64,000 nt of DNA from Nitrospinaceae bacterium (GCA_965223665.1 OZ245011.1:2912001-2976000); one strand, 5' to 3'; shown: positions 49,901-57,836, counted from the stretch's first letter. The notes: generated from the sequence alone by a model not told the origin. Translations and numbers: made by a program.

Positions 49901-51304
49901 CTATTTAGTTTTAGAGCGCCACTCTTTTAAAGAACGCGTGATTTGAGCCAGGACTTGTTTTTTAGCCGTACCCCCATAGACGTTTTTTCTTTGAACAGAA
50001 TTTTCCAAGGAAATGTAATTAAAAATATCTTTATCAAACTTATTGGAAATGGTTTGTAGTTCTTTTAACGTCAAATCTTCTAATGTACGTTTTTGGTTAA
50101 TGCAATAAGCGACAGTTTTTCCCGTAATTTCGTGGGCGTTGCGAAAGGGAATATTTTTTAGAACCAAATAGTCTGCCAAATCCGTTGCCGTTAAAAACCC
50201 GCTATTAATTAAATCTGCTTTGGGAATTTTTTTGAATACTGCGGTACTTAACATTCCAGCGAACACTTCCAAAGATATTTTAACTGTATCGACCATATCG
50301 AATAAGGGTTCCTTGTCTTCCTGCAAATCTTTGTTGTAGGCCAGAGGTTGTCCTTTCATCAAGGTCAAAAGTCCCATTAAATGTCCATAGACACGACCGG
50401 TTTTACCTCGGATCAGTTCGGCGGCATCGGGATTTTTCTTTTGCGGCATAATACTGGAACCTGTTGTGAAAGCATCCGACAATTCTAGAAATGCGAACTC
50501 GCTGGTACACCACAGGACAATTTCCTCACAAAATCGGCTTAAATGCATCATAAGTAAGGAAGCGGCAGAACCAAACTCTACAATAAAATCCCGGTCACTG
50601 ACGGAATCCAAACTGTTGTGCGTCACTTTAGGGAATTTTAGCAATTTTGCGGTGTGCTTTCGGTCGATGGGGAAATTAGTTCCCGCTAAAGCCGCAGCTC
50701 CTAAAGGCAAAACATTGACCCGGTTCAAAACATCATTCAAGCGGTCACGATCACGCGCCAGCATTTCAACATAAGCCATTAAATGATGAGCCAGCAAGAT
50801 GGGCTGCGCCCGTTGTAAATGGGTATAACCGGGAATGATGTGATTGATATTTTTTTTCGCCAGTTGTATTAGTATGTTTGCCAACTCTTTGAGTAATTTT
50901 TGAATTTCTTTGATTTGATCTCGAAGGTACAACCGGATATCCAGTGCAACCTGGTCGTTACGACTTCTTCCGGTATGCAATTTACCGCCAACGGGTCCAA
51001 CTAATTGGATCAATCGGTTTTCGATATTCATATGAATATCTTCTAAATCTTCTCGAATTTGAAAACTTCCTTCTTCGAATTCTTTTAAGATTTTCTTTAA
51101 ACCTTGGGAAATCTTTTTTGCTTCCGCCGGTTTTATAATTTTACATTTTGCCAATGTTTGACAATGGGCCAGGCTCCCCTGAATATCATAGGCATACAAC
51201 CGACGATCAAAGAATATAGAAGCAGAAAACCGGATCATTAAATCATCAGTACTTTCCTGGAACCGACCGCTCCAGGGTTTTTTAGTTTTTGTTTTTTTTG
51301 CCAT
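49901..51304 (-). CDS. argH: Argininosuccinate lyase
   Basis: [36 protein letters not shown]. Confidence 0.97.
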
Positions 51305-51405: not shown

Positions 51406-52530
51406 TTAGGAGCTTTTCCGCCATTTGTCTTTAGGAACAATATTAACATGAACTTTTTCAGGAAGAACATGTGCTAAAAAATCAAGGTACCAGGCTTGAA
51501 TATTGGGGCAACCCGCACTGCCATTACGCCAATCAAAGTTTTTTTTCACAAATTCATTTGATTTGGAAACATTGACCCCATGGATTCCATAGCTTCCTCT
51601 TATAGGAGCCCCTAATTTTTTCAATCCTAACCACCAGTAACCTATTTCATGATCCGGATCGCCAAATGGGATGACACGTACTTTAACTCGACCCTCCACC
51701 CTTTCTTTTTTATACCAGGTAGGTTTATAAATTTTATTTTTTATTTCATATTCTCCAATAGGGGTTTCTTCCCCTTTGCGCCCAAATATAGTTTCAATTT
51801 CCATTAAATGTTCATTATTGTAGTAAATGTTAAGCATTCCCGTTTCCAGAATACCTACCAAATACCAAAGGTCGGGATTTTGGGAATACTCTCCAATTTT
51901 TCTTCCGTCGTAAATCAGCTGTATGGTAGATTCCGTATTATAATAACTGGTACGGGGGTCATTATAAATTTGTTTCACAATGTATTTTAAGTTTTTAGTT
52001 AATTCATTATTTTTTATAAGACGATCCACCATTTGCACTAATTCTTTATATTCCTTTTTCGTTTTCTTTAAACTTTTCTGAGTTTTTGCTAAGTGCTGTT
52101 GAATGGAATCGACTTTTTCCTGGGAAACCCAACCTAATTCCCTTAAACCCTCGTAATAAACCAGATCTATTTCAGTGCGCATTCCTTCCGTAATAAAAAA
52201 TTTGTAAGTAACAAAACCCCCAAAAATTAAAGTTCCGAGAACTAATGCAGAAGCCTTCAGGGTATTTTTCATTTTGTTAGAAATTTTATACCGGGCCACT
52301 TCAAGCTTTACTTTTTTTCCTTTTTCTTCCAGGGCCGAAAACTTGGCGTAACGAAATTTTTTGAAAAGTTTAGTTTCTAATCTGGAAAGAAAGGTATGGG
52401 ATTGTTCCAATTTGTTGATCACTGCATATAAATTCTCACGGGTTCGGCGGTCGTAACTTCCCTGAGGATCTTTGTTGGCAATTAGATTATATTCAGTGAC
52501 ACTGAGGACTTTAAGTTTTTTGGCATCCAT
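51406..52530 (-). CDS. Single-pass L,D-transpeptidase (YkuD) with novel N-terminal domain and coiled coil
   Basis: TPIGEY, KPTW, YGIHG...GSAGCP catalytic motif; TM at aa ~93-113; aa 1-64 shared with the upstream bactofilin. Confidence 0.85.
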   Translation of the reverse strand: MDAKKLKVLSVTEYNLIANKDPQGSYDRRTRENLYAVINKLEQSHTFLSRLETKLFKKFRYAKFSALEEKGKKVKLEVARYKISNKMKNTLKASALVLGTLIFGGFVTYKFFITEGMRTEIDLVYYEGLRELGWVSQEKVDSIQQHLAKTQKSLKKTKKEYKELVQMVDRLIKNNELTKNLKYIVKQIYNDPRTSYYNTESTIQLIYDGRKIGEYSQNPDLWYLVGILETGMLNIYYNNEHLMEIETIFGRKGEETPIGEYEIKNKIYKPTWYKKERVEGRVKVRVIPFGDPDHEIGYWWLGLKKLGAPIRGSYGIHGVNVSKSNEFVKKNFDWRNGSAGCPNIQAWYLDFLAHVLPEKVHVNIVPKDKWRKSS

Positions 52531-52708
52531 GTAAACTTACTAACACCTATTTTGCGTGGAGACCTTCGTTAAATAATTTAATGGGATAGCTTTTTTTAAA
52601 AAGACAAATCAACTTTAAAGAAATAAATTGAATTTATTTCTAAATTATTCCCTGAGAATAAGAGCTAAAATATTAGTGGAATATTTGTATAGTTTAGCGC
52701 AATTAAAT

Positions 52709-53272
52709 TTAGCCTACACTAAATAATTGGCTGACCAGGCTCTTCCTGGGTTTGGGAACTTCCGGGATAAATTTGGGACGAAATTTACATTGCCCCTGGA
52801 ACAAGGCTCCCGGTTCGATTTTTATGGAAGGGGCTTTTAAATCACCCATTAACATTCCCGTAGGATATACTTTTACTTTATGACTTGCCTCAACATCGCC
52901 AACAATTTTTCCTTTGCAATAAAGGGACTTTGCATAGACATTGCCTCTTAAATTTCCGGGTTCGGTCAAAATAAATATTCCATTTACGGTAATATCTCCT
53001 TCATGTCGACCTTCCAGGCAAACATTGCAATTGAATTTTAAGGATCCCTCGCTTTGATGCTCTATAGGCAGCAATAAACCAAAATCTGCATTTTGGAACT
53101 TTTTATAAAGGCGGTTTTCTTTCCAACAAGTACCTTTTTTATAAGTCTCTAATTTTCTGATAATTCTAAATAATTTTTCACGAACACTTCTTTCGAAAAA
53201 TCCTTGAGGATCTTTATCAATCAAAAATTCATATTCTGAATGGGTGAGAACATTTAATTTTATTTTTTTCAT
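52709..53272 (-). CDS. Bactofilin (DUF583) fused to novel N-terminal domain
   Basis: Beta-helix repeats GSLKF..EGDI..GNV.A..GKIVGDV..GDL.APSIKIEPGALFQGQC. Confidence 0.88.
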   Translation of the reverse strand: MKKIKLNVLTHSEYEFLIDKDPQGFFERSVREKLFRIIRKLETYKKGTCWKENRLYKKFQNADFGLLLPIEHQSEGSLKFNCNVCLEGRHEGDITVNGIFILTEPGNLRGNVYAKSLYCKGKIVGDVEASHKVKVYPTGMLMGDLKAPSIKIEPGALFQGQCKFRPKFIPEVPKPRKSLVSQLFSVG

Positions 53273-53280
53273 AGGGGCTC

Positions 53281-54597
53281 TCAGCTAAAGTTGGTGGCAA
53301 TTTGGGAAATTTTTCCCATTAGGGGAGGTTTTTTGGCTGCCGTCAAATATTCCATGATAGTTTTTTCACCACTTTCCAGCGTGGGGCAGGTCTTATAATC
53401 AGATAGGATGGCCCGAGCCACCATATCCATACAACCACTTAAACCGGGATCCATTTTGTAAAATAGAGTCCCATGGTTGTTGGTTATATTAATGACTTTA
53501 TGGTTAGGTAAAGAGCTTAAAATATGAATACGTTTTTTTAACTGCTGATACTTATCTAAAGTTTCTAAATAATCCTTCAACATGTTTAAGGCATTGGGAA
53601 TTTCTGATGGATTTTGTCCTCGGTTAAAAATTATTCCCAGTTTTTTATTCTTTAAGGATTGAACAATAGCATTATGACCCTTTTGGGCTGTCAATTGGGT
53701 GACATAATTTTTGTCCAACCCGGTTAGCTTCCCTGTCTGAAAGTCGGCCAAAAACTCTTCATAATAATCAATGAAAGAATGTAGTGCATCAATACTTCCA
53801 TTAATGGCAATATTGTTACTCAAATCAAAAACAAATATTACCTGATCGATTACATTCATTAATGAAGATAAATGGTTGATGCCTCCCGCAGGAGTGTCTA
53901 AAACCACATATCGGAATCTATCAAATACAGAATTCAAAAATTCTAGAAACAGTAGTAAATACTCCGGTTCATTGATCCGTTTGCGATGTCCTCGTTTTCC
54001 TAAAACAGGAACTTCCCCGCCAATGATAGAGAAATCGTATTCTTCAATAAAATTAATATATTCTTGAACCATAGGGCGGGAATTGTGTTCTGCCTGTTTA
54101 AGGATTTTTCGTAAAGCCGGCAGGTCAATATTTTTCAGAAGGGGTTTCAGTTTTTTGATTTCCGGAATACTGTGTATGTTTCCTCGACTCAGAAACAATT
54201 CATAAGCGGCTAAACCTTCCTTATATTCCATATGTTGGAACAATTCAGTTTTTAATGTTTTGAATAAAACAAAAGCCTTCTGTAATTTTTTATTGCGACC
54301 TTGAATTTCTCCCTCTAAATAGGCATTGAACCAGGTAACGATTTGATAAAGATTCCGCAAAAAATCGATTTGATAGGTTTTGTTTGCCAGAGTCTCAAAT
54401 AAATTATAAAAAGTTTTTCGTGGATGGCAGTCCAATAAACTTGTAATGGTGGGCAATCGCAAATCTAAATCCACTAAACAAATTTGTTTTTTAGGTGTTT
54501 TTTTTCCTAATAGTTGAGTGAGTGCGGCGGTGGTATTGATGGAAAGAGTGGTTTTTCCAATTCCTCCCTTGGGACCTACAATAGAAATAATTGGCAT
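53281..54597 (-). CDS. Enlarged MinD/ParA-family ATPase
   Basis: Deviant Walker A GPKGGIGKTT, LVDLD, VLDTPAG, IFNR; 438 aa with large insertions. Confidence 0.85.
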   Translation of the reverse strand: MPIISIVGPKGGIGKTTLSINTTAALTQLLGKKTPKKQICLVDLDLRLPTITSLLDCHPRKTFYNLFETLANKTYQIDFLRNLYQIVTWFNAYLEGEIQGRNKKLQKAFVLFKTLKTELFQHMEYKEGLAAYELFLSRGNIHSIPEIKKLKPLLKNIDLPALRKILKQAEHNSRPMVQEYINFIEEYDFSIIGGEVPVLGKRGHRKRINEPEYLLLFLEFLNSVFDRFRYVVLDTPAGGINHLSSLMNVIDQVIFVFDLSNNIAINGSIDALHSFIDYYEEFLADFQTGKLTGLDKNYVTQLTAQKGHNAIVQSLKNKKLGIIFNRGQNPSEIPNALNMLKDYLETLDKYQQLKKRIHILSSLPNHKVINITNNHGTLFYKMDPGLSGCMDMVARAILSDYKTCPTLESGEKTIMEYLTAAKKPPLMGKISQIATNFS

Positions 54598-55305
54598 TTA
54601 ATTTGACCCCTCTGACTTGATTTTTGTAGCCCCTGCAATGACCAAAGTAATTTCCCCTTTCCATTTTTTAGATTTAGTTTGTTGAATGACTTCTTGCACC
54701 GATCCTCGAATCACTTCTTCATGCATTTTGGTTAATTCACGGGTAACGGCAATTTGTCGTTCTCCAAAAACTTCTGCAATTTCTTCTAGAGTTTTTTGAA
54801 TCCGTTGAGGGGATTCAAAAAGCACGACCGAAGCGGAATGTTGAGCTAAGGTTTCCATTGTTTTTCTTCGTCGTTTTTTTCTCGGCAGAAAACCGGCAAA
54901 AACAAATCGGTCAACCGGAAGACCTGAAACAATCAATGATGCCAAAACCGCTGATGGTCCTGGCAACGGGTAAACCGGAATCCCGTTATTAATTGCTAAT
55001 TGAACTAATTGATATAGTGGATCTGATACCCCGGGTGTACCTGCGTCTGAAACTAAGGCAACATTTTGCCCCTCTAGCAAATTGCGAATTATTACAGGTC
55101 CTTTTTTTATTTGGTTATAACTATTATAACTGGAAAGGGGCGTGGAAATATCATAATGGTTTAATAGAATTCGAGTGCGCCTCGTATCTTCCGCTGCAAT
55201 TAGTTGCACTTCCCTTAAAGTTTCCACGGCGCGATAAGTGATGTCTCCCAGGTTGCCAATGGGAGTACTCACAATAAAAAGCGAGCCCTTTTCATTTTTT
55301 AGCAT
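54598..55305 (-). CDS. rsmI: 16S rRNA C1402 2'-O-methyltransferase
   Basis: TPIGNLGDIT, AEDTR, SDAGTPGVSDP, FESP, RELTKMHEE. Confidence 0.96.
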   Translation of the reverse strand: MLKNEKGSLFIVSTPIGNLGDITYRAVETLREVQLIAAEDTRRTRILLNHYDISTPLSSYNSYNQIKKGPVIIRNLLEGQNVALVSDAGTPGVSDPLYQLVQLAINNGIPVYPLPGPSAVLASLIVSGLPVDRFVFAGFLPRKKRRRKTMETLAQHSASVVLFESPQRIQKTLEEIAEVFGERQIAVTRELTKMHEEVIRGSVQEVIQQTKSKKWKGEITLVIAGATKIKSEGSN

Positions 55306-55444: not shown

Positions 55445-55858
55445 TTAGCCTAATGCTTCTTTTTCCGAGTCTCCCGATTCATCTTTCATCAAATTAATGA
55501 TCTTTTTTTCTTTTGGAACCATGTTACATTGGCCATCCAAAACGGCTCCCACCTCAACGAATAAAGAAGGGGTATTAACGTCACCAATGACTTCGCTATT
55601 AGAATAAATTTCAACACGTGTTGCGGCATTGATAGAACCTTTAATTTTTCCTTTACAAATTACAGTTCCCGCTGTGATATTGGCTTCTAGAACTCCCTTT
55701 TCTCCAACAATTAATGTGTCCTCCGTTTTAACTTCTCCCTCTAAGGTTCCGTCAACTCGAACTGCACCCGCAAAAGTGAGCGATCCTTTAAAAACCGCAT
55801 CTTCACCCATATAGGCTTTTATATCTTTAATATTTTCGTAATCTTTTTTGCTTCCCAT
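55445..55858 (-). CDS. Bactofilin (polymer-forming cytoskeletal protein)
   Basis: FKGSLTF.GAVRVDG..EGEV....IVGEKG..GDV.TPSL.VEVGAVLDGQC; start at MGSKK after a G-rich RBS. Confidence 0.93.
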   Translation of the reverse strand: MGSKKDYENIKDIKAYMGEDAVFKGSLTFAGAVRVDGTLEGEVKTEDTLIVGEKGVLEANITAGTVICKGKIKGSINAATRVEIYSNSEVIGDVNTPSLFVEVGAVLDGQCNMVPKEKKIINLMKDESGDSEKEALG

Positions 55859-55920
55859 AATAAAATTCCCCCCCGCCGACACATTCGGTAGAAAATTTGT
55901 TTCAAATTGTTTTTGGTTAT

Positions 55921-56784
55921 TTATTTACCCATTATAATATCACGAATTCTCGTTAAGTCATCATTAGAATAGTAAGAAATCAATAACTTACCTCCTTTTT
56001 TTGCTGGATGGATGGTTACTTTGGTTCCTACCTTCCTTTCCAATTCGGTTTCTAAAGATTTGATAAAAGCGTCTTTATGGGCAATTGGTGTGGCGGGTTT
56101 TTCCTTTTCGGGTCTCTTTAAGTTTTTTACTAAATTTTCTACCTGTCGCACGTTTAGTGACTGTTTAATTACAGCTAAACGGGCCTCTTCCATTTCTTTT
56201 TCTGTTTCTAAAGCCAAAATTGCCCTTGCATGTCCCATTGTTAATCGGCCGGAAACTAAATCTTCTTTAAAAGAATGAGAAAGTTTTAGTAACCGTAAAT
56301 AATTGGCGATGGTTGCTCGATTTTTTCCTACTTTTTTGGAAATGGCTTCCTGGGTGAGTCCAAATTCATGTGCCAGTTGATGATAGGCTTCTGCTTCTTC
56401 TATCGGATTTAAGTCTGCACGATGAATATTTTCTATAAGGGCTAATTGTAAAGACTCTGTGCTGCTGACTTCCCGAATCACAGCGGGTATTTTTTTTAAT
56501 CCCAGTTTTTTACAAGCACGCCATCGCCTTTCTCCACAAATCAACTCAAATTGGTTTTCTGCTTTTTGAACCACCACGGGTTGGATAATTCCATTTTCTT
56601 TAATGGAATCCACCAATTCCTGAAAAGGCTCATCTTCAAATTGTTTTCTGGGTTGATTGGGGTTGGGTGATATTTCATCGACCAATAATTCAGTAAGTCC
56701 CTCCTTGGCTTCGGTTTCTGTGATTCCCATTTCAAAATCAGGAATCAGGGCGTTGATCCCTTTTCCAAGTGCTTTTCGATTCAC
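55921..56784 (-). CDS. parB: Chromosome partition protein ParB
   Basis: RKALGKG, NPNQPRK, GERRWRA, ENIHRADLNPIEEA, HTH, GHARA. Confidence 0.96.
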   Translation of the reverse strand: MNRKALGKGINALIPDFEMGITETEAKEGLTELLVDEISPNPNQPRKQFEDEPFQELVDSIKENGIIQPVVVQKAENQFELICGERRWRACKKLGLKKIPAVIREVSSTESLQLALIENIHRADLNPIEEAEAYHQLAHEFGLTQEAISKKVGKNRATIANYLRLLKLSHSFKEDLVSGRLTMGHARAILALETEKEMEEARLAVIKQSLNVRQVENLVKNLKRPEKEKPATPIAHKDAFIKSLETELERKVGTKVTIHPAKKGGKLLISYYSNDDLTRIRDIIMGK

Positions 56785-57584
56785 GATGATTGATCCATTA
56801 TGGTTAAAGGTTTATTGAAGGGTTTGGAGCGGGCAATAATTTCTTTGGCTAATTCCACATAAGAGTCTGCTCCACTGGAACGATTGTCGTAAAGAATAAC
56901 CGGCTTTCCATGACTGGGTGCCTCGCTCAAACGAACGTTTCGAGGAATAACTGTTTCAAGAAGATTTTCTTTGAAATATTTTTTAACCTGTTCATGAACT
57001 TGAGCTGCCAAACTGGTACGCTTGTCATACATGGTTAATAGAATGCCTTCTATTTTTAAATCAGGATTGAAGGAATGTTTGACCAACTTGAGAGTTTTCA
57101 TCAAATGGCTCAACCCCTGAAGCGAGTAATATTCGCATTGCATAGGGATTAGTACCGAACGCGACACGTTTAAAGCATTTAAAGTTAGCAATCCTAAAGA
57201 GGGTGGGCAATCTATCATGACAAAGTCATAATAATTTTCTATGCCATTTAGGGCTAATTTTAATTGAGACTCCCGATTCTCCTGACTCACCAATTCAATT
57301 TCGGCTCCGGCCAAATCGACAGTTGCAGGAACCAGCTTCAGAGTTTCGACTTCCGTTTCATGGGTGACTTGATCCAAACTTGTTCTTCCCAAGAGCAAAT
57401 CATAGGTTCCCTTTCCTCCTTCTGGCAAACTCACTCCTAAACCACTGGTTGCGTTGCTTTGAGGGTCCATATCGATTAGAAGAACATTTTTTCCTGTTGT
57501 AGCTAGGCAAGCAGCAAGATTTATGGACGTAGTGGTCTTTCCGACGCCACCTTTTTGATTAGCCACACTAATGATTTTCGCCAT
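56781..57584 (-). CDS. parA: Chromosome partition ATPase ParA (Soj)
   Basis: NQKGGVGKTT, DMDPQSN, DCPPSLG, IPRNVRLSEAPS; start at MAKIIS. Confidence 0.96.
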   Translation of the reverse strand: MAKIISVANQKGGVGKTTTSINLAACLATTGKNVLLIDMDPQSNATSGLGVSLPEGGKGTYDLLLGRTSLDQVTHETEVETLKLVPATVDLAGAEIELVSQENRESQLKLALNGIENYYDFVMIDCPPSLGLLTLNALNVSRSVLIPMQCEYYSLQGLSHLMKTLKLVKHSFNPDLKIEGILLTMYDKRTSLAAQVHEQVKKYFKENLLETVIPRNVRLSEAPSHGKPVILYDNRSSGADSYVELAKEIIARSKPFNKPLTIMDQSS

Positions 57585-57836
57585 AGAATTAATTGGAAGG
57601 GTAAAATAAAAATAAATTATCACAAAAAATGGAACTTTCCAATTCAATTCCCACGGCCCGCGGCCGGTGGGAACTTTTTAGTACCGATGATCGGCAATAA
57701 ACGCCGAACCCTCAGAAACTTTTCCTGAGTTGAACTTGTCTCTAGAGGAAAAGTAAATAATAAGAGGCGATATGTCCCTCCTTATAGAAATTATGGAGCA
57801 AAAATCAATAGATACAAGAGGGAAAGCCGATGTTCG

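Follow-up and report, generated by a model that had tools for sequence, protein, structure and literature searches.

We have found a three-gene module in a 64,000-nt stretch of the genome of a Nitrospinaceae bacterium (GCA_965223665.1 OZ245011.1:2912001-2976000; this whole stretch is called the window, and positions are counted within it). The genes encode a MinD/FlhG-like ATPase, a bactofilin and a membrane-anchored enzyme with a YkuD domain, and the bactofilin and the enzyme begin with the same domain. With moderate confidence we read these genes as a cell-envelope module particular to the order Nitrospinales, in which the cytoplasmic tail of the bitopic YkuD enzyme is docked by the ATPase, with the bactofilin as accessory scaffold. 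The ATPase and the enzyme most likely make an obligatory pair, with the N-terminal domain of the enzyme as the handle for the ATPase; the bactofilin is most likely an add-on, a static scaffold of accessory rank. The initial annotation of this DNA had put a bactofilin polymer, positioned by the ATPase, at the core of the system.

The module consists of three consecutive minus-strand open reading frames (ORFs), 53281-54597 (438 aa), 52709-53272 (187 aa) and 51406-52530 (374 aa), and the spacings given in the initial annotation are exact. The stop of the upstream gene, rsmI, abuts the start of the ATPase gene (the upstream ORF ends at 54598, a gap of 0 bp), the gap between the ATPase and bactofilin genes is 8 bp (53273-53280) and that between the bactofilin and YkuD genes is 178 bp (52531-52708). 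The features of the module are as follows.

53281..54597, minus strand: MinD/FlhG-like ATPase with deviant Walker A motif, 438 aa (Pfam AAA_31/CbiA/ParA at the N-terminus; motifs; AlphaFold2 and Foldseek)
52709..53272, minus strand: bactofilin with the shared N-terminal domain (NtBac), 187 aa (Pfam Bactofilin)
53072..53272, minus strand: bactofilin copy of the shared domain, residues 1-67 (BLASTP against the YkuD protein; alignment A1)
52784..53056, minus strand: Bactofilin (DUF583) domain, residues 73-163 (PF04519, E 2.6e-21, 76.1 bits, cut-off 27.9)
51406..52530, minus strand: bitopic YkuD-domain enzyme, putative L,D-transpeptidase, 374 aa (Pfam YkuD, 46.9 bits)
52330..52530, minus strand: enzyme copy of the shared domain, residues 1-67, cytoplasmic, predicted dock for the ATPase (BLASTP; alignment A1; complex prediction)
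52192..52254, minus strand: single transmembrane helix, residues ~93-113 (lone hydrophobic segment in 21/21 orthologues)
51961..52131, minus strand: helical, probably coiled-coil stalk, residues ~134-190 (weak coiled-coil-type matches)
51448..51837, minus strand: YkuD catalytic domain, residues 232-361, with His317 and Cys341 (Pfam, 46.9 bits, cut-off 23.4)

The N-terminal domain common to the bactofilin and the YkuD enzyme (N-dom) comprises the first 67 residues of each protein, slightly more than the ~64 aa of the initial annotation; the two copies align without gaps and are identical at 28/67 positions (E 4e-13, BLASTP). The likeness is not due to chance, since it is found in both proteins in every relative examined. 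The genome from which the window comes (4.35 Mb, 98.6% complete) has exactly two copies. In alignment A1, made of 38 N-dom copies from 21 genomes with the bactofilin copy as its first row, residues L9, G24, R31 and E52 are invariant, eight further positions are at least 90% conserved, and the copies of both proteins are under purifying selection. AlphaFold2 applied to this alignment gives a compact three-helix domain (pLDDT 91.8).

The initial annotation had called the domain unannotated, and this is borne out by the searches. Pfam has no family for it (weak matches to PF24243, Phage_tail_C, occur in 8 of the 38 members, best E 0.001), a sequence search of the PDB finds no relative (best E 0.052), and Foldseek finds no relative of the fold either in the PDB (best E 1.4; 0/173 at E<=0.001) or in BFVD (best E 1.3). 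The ESM Atlas yields no usable match, and a word-indexed protein search with residues 1-67 returns the query alone (1/3 candidates) from an index that is too insensitive for the domain. A profile search of 1.84 billion (1.84e9) representative proteins produced 50 matches at E<=1e-3; of the 17 inspected, 14 are of bactofilin or YkuD type (whole proteins or fragments of these), and the other three (P0017, P0049 and P0053) were rejected as N-dom proteins, being long, unrelated repeat proteins whose scores are summed over many stretches. As far as the sequences of the 17 inspected matches out of 50 can tell, N-dom is confined to bactofilin and YkuD architectures.

The first ~26 residues of N-dom (LxVLTxxEYxLIxxKDPxGxY; window 52450-52530, minus strand) resemble a tandem-repeat motif of phage-tail-like proteins. 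Homology of the domain with phage-tail proteins was considered and rejected: what is shared is a short motif, LTxxEYxxLxxKDPxxxY, which is also found as a tandem repeat in P0053.

The named records with the ATPase all belong to Nitrospinota (Nitrospinaceae, Nitrospinales, Nitrospina and Ca. Nitromaritima), bar three short contigs with another or no phylum label; the closest locus, at 97% identity, is in a Nitrospinaceae metagenome-assembled genome. Eleven loci from other phyla, which match the ATPase over its first 78 residues or fewer, were excluded. Among 120 Nitrospinota genomes N-dom is present in 74 and the ATPase (E<=1e-40) in 71. The co-occurrence with this ATPase clade that the initial annotation proposed to look for is indeed seen: 69 genomes have both, 44 have neither, five have N-dom only and two the ATPase only. 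All carriers fall into four families of one order, Nitrospinales, and the other five families (f5-f9) have none (0/18 genomes). Four of the five N-dom-only genomes have the bactofilin alone; in the fifth (G073), a fragmented assembly, the matches lie near a contig start. As to the two ATPase-only genomes, in one (G078) the contig ends ~100 bp past the gene, and in the other (G071), a 57%-complete assembly, the ATPase lies at a contig start. The three apparent mismatches between ATPase and enzyme N-dom (G071, G073 and G078) are located on short or fragmentary contigs, of which that of G078 was inspected.

The gene order rsmI–ATPase–bactofilin–YkuD–argH is conserved, and the synteny of the three genes holds across the whole order, in four families at 53-62% protein identity. 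In a sample of 20 of the 35 ATPase-positive relatives a YkuD gene follows the ATPase gene in 20/20, with an N-dom bactofilin between them in 16/20. The 63 named loci include 50 with ATPase and YkuD gene (42 of these with the bactofilin), 12 that end before the YkuD position and one (L075) that deviates.

For the loss series, 94 loci were reduced to 53 by dropping duplicates and loci without full rsmI and argH ORFs (including L114, where argH is not nearby). Among the 53 non-redundant loci, 37 have all three genes, 10 have ATPase and YkuD, four have the bactofilin alone and two have none; each of the remaining states (ATPase alone, YkuD alone, ATPase with bactofilin, bactofilin with YkuD) is found in 0/53. 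Thus, in these 53 loci the ATPase and the enzyme are kept or lost together, never apart. The losses were mapped on a FastTree tree of RsmI and ArgH (midpoint root, supports left out of account). It shows five places of bactofilin loss, two separate clades in which the ATPase and the enzyme disappeared while the bactofilin stayed, and one or two losses of the complete module. The loci of the two clades read rsmI-NtBac-argH; therefore two deletions were needed, on either side of the gene that stayed. The sole named cultured record, Nitrospina sp. 32_T5 (L081), has the module without the bactofilin.

In a complete relative that lacks the module (L115:5344-5514, plus strand), a 56-aa ORF directly 3′ of rsmI is 54% identical to YkuD residues 336-372. 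To judge from its sequence, this ORF appears to be a deletion scar, left when the ATPase gene, the bactofilin gene and most of the enzyme gene were lost.

A complex of the ATPase with residues 1-75 of the enzyme was predicted, with both partners given as custom alignments and with three controls. The ipSAE values for ATPase and enzyme N-dom were 0.59, 0.68 and 0.72 (median 0.68), while the best control reached 0.00; contacts agree between runs by at least 75%, and the pLDDT of the partner is at least 80. The pass mark was attained in the calibration of the tool by 58/80 solved complexes and by 2/110 mismatched pairs, counts that are rough here owing to the custom alignments. N-dom has no relative in the PDB and no similar complex is solved; therefore the pass does not derive from a known structure. 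The predicted contacts are ATPase residues 55-65, 182-187, 195-200 and 375-377 and enzyme N-dom residues 2-6, 11-20, 24-30, 33 and 66-70. On the ATPase, 12/22 contact residues are at least 90% conserved, versus 140/416 elsewhere (Fisher p 0.04), with entropy of 0.61 versus 1.13 (p 0.005); the contact residues of the enzyme N-dom are also more conserved than the rest (entropy 0.68 versus 1.35, p 0.012). The predicted patch for N-dom on the ATPase directly follows switch I, a location that we take to be the partner-binding site of MinD. The idea of a docking module, advanced in the initial annotation, is thus backed by prediction for the enzyme copy on the ATPase; the link is weaker for the bactofilin copy, which is not conserved at the predicted interface.

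The same observations bear on another explanation, in which N-dom is a self-association domain that pairs the bactofilin with the enzyme tail and homo-oligomerizes in either protein alone, the ATPase regulating this assembly or merely accompanying it. The two N-doms are paralogous with a common core, and each N-dom protein persists without the other (ATPase and YkuD in 10 loci, bactofilin alone in four), as a homo-oligomerizing domain would allow. Moreover, the BacA-LmdC system offers a precedent for direct contact between a bactofilin and an enzyme tail (PMC10945521). Self-association would, however, leave unexplained the inseparability of ATPase and enzyme, the peak of conservation of the enzyme N-dom at the predicted ATPase contact, and the passing of the ATPase–N-dom prediction with controls at 0.00. 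We therefore regard it as unlikely, and keep the docking of the enzyme tail on the ATPase as the preferred reading.

The ATPase has the motifs of its class. The Walker A motif GPKGGIGKTT, with signature Lys10 and Lys15, is invariant in 21/21 orthologues, switch I (DLDLRLPT; D43 invariant, D45 at least 90%) is conserved in 21/21, and Walker B (LDTPAG, in the context VVLDTPAG, with invariant D234), after a hydrophobic strand, is likewise conserved in 21/21. By these motifs and by its fold the protein belongs to the ParA/MinD superfamily, deviant Walker A type. Pfam families AAA_31, CbiA and ParA match the N-terminus only, and residues 2-68 make the sole sequence match to solved proteins (best FleN, E 1.3e-6). 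With the AlphaFold2 model (pLDDT 80.7) Foldseek puts MinD (1hyq) on top (E 7.1e-7, TMt 0.73), followed by FleN and FlhG with E of about 1e-6; TMt values range over 0.6-0.76. MinD, FlhG and FleN all belong to the MinD-type ATPases, whose partner proteins bind close to the dimer interface. A helical insertion of ~120 aa (residues ~63-180) has no Pfam family above cut-off (best DUF5891, E 0.024). The protein is not MinD proper, as it scores 33 bits with TIGR01968 against a cut-off of 212.9, with residues 3-74 aligned. A word-indexed search yields 327 relatives, of which the best 120 are 57-69% identical and are labelled in databases as ParA family protein, BcsQ, tyrosine-protein kinase family protein or AAA ATPase. 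In four loci of one family (L022, L029, L030 and L031) the ATPase ORF is ~18 codons longer and overlaps the bactofilin start by ~40 bp. A C-terminal membrane helix of the ATPase, considered as a candidate, is unsupported by the hydrophobic moment.

These properties could also suggest a general regulator of positioning or division (Min-, MipZ- or FlhG-like), for which the N-dom proteins would be two of several clients, or mere neighbours in an origin-proximal block. The fold is nearest to MinD, FleN and FlhG, the cluster adjoins parAB, and the window's genome, 98.6% complete, has no MinD above cut-off (best 109.8 bits versus 212.9, TIGR01968) and no match to MinE (PF03776). The ATPase is, however, absent from five relatives at 93-98% completeness (G021, G024, G036 and G039 at 98%, G075 at 93%) and is therefore dispensable and no essential division factor. 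Its loss is always accompanied by loss of the YkuD enzyme, and the parAB–bactofilin–rsmI block stays in place when the module is deleted. Such a general role thus appears distinctly improbable, and we return to the ATPase as the dedicated partner of the enzyme.

The YkuD domain of the enzyme scores above the gathering threshold (46.9 bits versus 23.4, residues 232-361), and the catalytic His317 (in IHG) and Cys341 (in GSAGCPN) are invariant in 21/21 orthologues. The residue that precedes Gly-Cys in this enzyme is Ala; the same position is occupied by His in many members of the YkuD family. Across the order the enzyme is 53-59% identical. A single hydrophobic segment (residues ~93-113) is present in 21/21 orthologues, its N-terminal flank having a net charge of +4 to +6 and its C-terminal flank of −4 to +1. 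Because the basic flank is on the N-terminal side in 21/21 orthologues, by the positive-inside rule N-dom is cytoplasmic and the YkuD domain is outside; the initial annotation had placed the domain likewise, before a single transmembrane helix. It had further described a coiled-coil stalk followed by a YkuD domain with the motif IHG...GSAGC. The domain and its motif stand; the matches of coiled-coil type to residues ~134-205 are weak, and the stalk is retained as a probable one.

Csd6 (Helicobacter), Pgp2 (Campylobacter) and Bd1075 (Bdellovibrio) have the YkuD fold, and no sequence relation of the enzyme to any of them was detected in a PDB sequence search, where the best match to a YkuD protein was YcbB (E 0.71). 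Pfam reported no M23 match in the enzyme. We call the enzyme a putative L,D-transpeptidase; its sequence does not tell 3-3 cross-linking from peptide trimming or protein tethering. A second YkuD gene of the genome is at C1:1702651-1702989.

The Bactofilin domain of the middle gene is likewise above the gathering score (76.1 bits versus 27.9, residues 73-163), and N-dom stands in place of the usual short N-terminal membrane peptide of bactofilins. The N-dom bactofilins (window 52709-52760, minus strand, and orthologues) have a short conserved basic-hydrophobic C-terminal tail that ends in Gly (...LFSVG, ...LFRAG, ...LLSTG); this tail might be a membrane or partner peptide. The bactofilin polymer that the initial annotation had at the core of the system could not be kept there: the gene was lost at least five times with ATPase and enzyme retained, it survives in two lineages without both, and its N-dom lacks conservation at the predicted interface.

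Whether selection on the N-dom of the bactofilin is relaxed where the ATPase has been lost was considered, with a mixed outcome. Without the ATPase, the domain scores ~52 bits in G076 and G077 (R31 and E32 lost) and ~90 bits in G089 and G090 (intact); at the level of loci it is intact in the lineage of L109 and L111, and in the lineage of L110 and L112 it lacks the otherwise invariant R31 and the near-invariant E32. In G047, where the ATPase is present, it scores 41 bits.

Several points weigh against the proposed docking of the enzyme on the ATPase with the bactofilin as accessory. The bactofilin persists without ATPase and enzyme in two lineages, and since it survives without both partners its N-dom must also have a role independent of the ATPase. 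At the predicted interface this copy of N-dom is no more conserved than elsewhere (entropy 1.73 versus 1.46). The complex score is the model's own confidence, and conservation may drive the prediction and also explain the conservation of the interface. The tail of the ATPase is not clearly amphipathic, with a maximum hydrophobic moment of 0.49, equal to the internal mean of the protein (0.6-0.74 in some orthologues). The YkuD domain is too divergent for assignment of a reaction, given the best match to a YkuD protein in the PDB. One locus (L075, 3797-10147) has unrelated genes after the ATPase. A second contig from the same bin (L119:7480-7685) carries a 206-bp match to the 3′ end of the ATPase gene at 94.7% identity, ~230 bp upstream of a YkuD gene and argH, so that L075 represents either a misjoin or, with two strains in one bin, a strain variant. 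Finally, the genomes, all of one order, are related, and neighbouring genes may disappear together for trivial reasons, an objection that applies to the empty state and not to the state with the bactofilin alone.

A frozen gene order without any functional link, with the shared domain as a leftover of local duplication, would suit the fact that all the evidence is comparative or predicted, but it is highly improbable given the persistence of the order across four families at 53-62% protein identity, the purifying selection on both N-dom copies, the joint loss, twice, of the flanking genes around a retained middle gene, and the passed complex prediction.

The mechanism we propose for the enzyme–ATPase pair is as follows. 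In association with the membrane, the ATPase would physically bind the N-dom of the enzyme at the conserved patch just after switch I, and the nucleotide state of this cytoplasmic ATPase would set the location, the timing or the oligomeric state of the enzyme as it acts on peptidoglycan. The bactofilin, encoded in most lineages between the ATPase and enzyme genes, would use its paralogous N-dom to plug into either this ATPase or the N-dom of the enzyme. A dimer of the ATPase, with two binding sites, could tether the enzyme to a bactofilin filament.

More tentatively, and with some doubt, we suggest that in Nitrospinales a MinD-type ATPase serves a single periplasmic wall enzyme: its ATP cycle would switch or place the YkuD enzyme by way of a private docking domain, the N-dom bactofilin would compete or cooperate for the ATPase, and the presence or absence of the bactofilin might help to set the shapes of Nitrospinota (long slender rods versus curved or helical cells). 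Cultured Nitrospinota strains are described as differing in cell shape (PMC8026999).

The module is embedded in the following neighbourhood.

54598..55305, minus strand: rsmI, 16S rRNA C1402 2′-O-methyltransferase (TIGR00096, 239.4 bits, cut-off 167.9)
55445..55882, minus strand: plain bactofilin, 145 aa, beside parB (Pfam Bactofilin, 94.5 bits)
55921-56784, minus strand: parB (TIGR00180, 191.2 bits, cut-off 58.45)
56781-57647, minus strand: ParA-type gene (best match NF041546, below its cut-off)
49901..51304, minus strand: argH, downstream boundary of the module (TIGR00838, 643.7 bits, cut-off 279.5)

The adjacency of rsmI and the ATPase gene is conserved among relatives. The genes parA-parB, then a plain bactofilin of ~130-150 aa, then rsmI make a constant block (window 55445-57647; L109-L115), intact in genomes that have lost part or all of the module; the association of parAB with a plain bactofilin recalls the bactofilin-ParABS link of Myxococcus. 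A third bactofilin domain of the genome lies outside the window, inside a 758-aa open frame (G000:C1:414109-414396). As for the limits of the operon, a scan for promoters and terminators in the DNA was uninformative: 28 promoter-like sites were found versus 23.9 +/- 5.1 in shuffles, and nine terminator-like sites versus 9.3 +/- 3.7.

Wall enzymes guided by bactofilins and cargo guided by ParA/MinD are already known. We know of no wall enzyme with a dedicated, folded cytoplasmic domain by which a MinD-type ATPase holds it. The module, as modelled here, suggests that cell-wall chemistry is steered from the cytoplasm in a manner not described so far. If the prediction is true, it would provide an energy-dependent, switchable link from the cytoplasm to peptidoglycan chemistry of the L,D-type, a new protein-protein docking domain with a predicted and mutable interface, and a way into the morphogenesis of the main marine nitrite oxidizers, whose cell biology has hardly been explored. 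The natural series of losses (complete module; ATPase with enzyme; lone bactofilin; none) makes for ready-made comparisons of strains.

The initial annotation knew of no described system with this architecture, and searches of the literature on bactofilins combined with Nitrospina, D-transpeptidases, MinD/ParA-like ATPases and LmdC, with supplementary tables outside their scope, found no such module in the parts of the papers covered. The systems that come nearest share single traits with it. With MinD, FlhG and FleN the ATPase has in common the deviant Walker A motif and the fold (Foldseek E about 1e-6, TMt 0.6-0.76); it differs from them in a sequence match limited to residues 2-68, in the ~120-residue helical insertion, in having no MinE and in having a new domain as its partner. 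Csd6, Pgp2 and Bd1075 (for the last, PMC8938487) are, like the enzyme of the module, of YkuD type; they edit peptidoglycan locally and set curvature, and the Helicobacter programme includes a bactofilin, CcmA. They are, however, described as soluble periplasmic L,D-carboxypeptidases, without a cytoplasmic domain or an ATPase partner.

In BacP-PadC-ParA there is a precedent for a ParA-type ATPase held by a bactofilin with the help of an adaptor (PMC5703909). As in the Nitrospinales module, in the BacNOP-PadC-ParA system of Myxococcus xanthus a bactofilin scaffold is coupled via an adaptor domain to an ATPase of the ParA/MinD superfamily, and the cluster is connected with chromosome partitioning (PMC5703909). 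The Myxococcus adaptor is a separate ParB-like protein that binds the C-terminal tail of the bactofilin, and the ATPase is the chromosomal ParA (PMC5703909), whereas the candidate adaptor in Nitrospinales is fused to the N-terminus of the bactofilin, the ATPase is a paralogue in its own right that has an insertion, and the same adaptor is present on a wall enzyme.

The closest system is BacA-LmdC, in which the gene for a bactofilin stands beside that for a bitopic M23 endopeptidase in Hyphomonas neptunium and Rhodospirillum rubrum, and the cytoplasmic tail of the enzyme binds the bactofilin (PMC10945521; the supplementary gene-neighbourhood tables of that paper, which may list non-M23 neighbours of bactofilins, are outside this comparison). 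In both systems a bactofilin gene adjoins the gene for an enzyme composed of a cytoplasmic N-terminal region, a transmembrane helix, a coiled coil (a probable one in Nitrospinales) and a periplasmic catalytic domain, and the cytoplasmic tail, a recruitment handle in LmdC, would be one here as well (PMC10945521). The Nitrospinales enzyme has the YkuD fold, while LmdC is an M23 peptidase, and its tail is modelled as a folded three-helix domain, while that of LmdC is a short beta-hairpin peptide (PMC10945521). Two further differences set the Nitrospinales module apart: the same tail domain is also fused to the bactofilin, and a dedicated MinD-like ATPase is the constant partner, with the bactofilin dispensable in several lineages.

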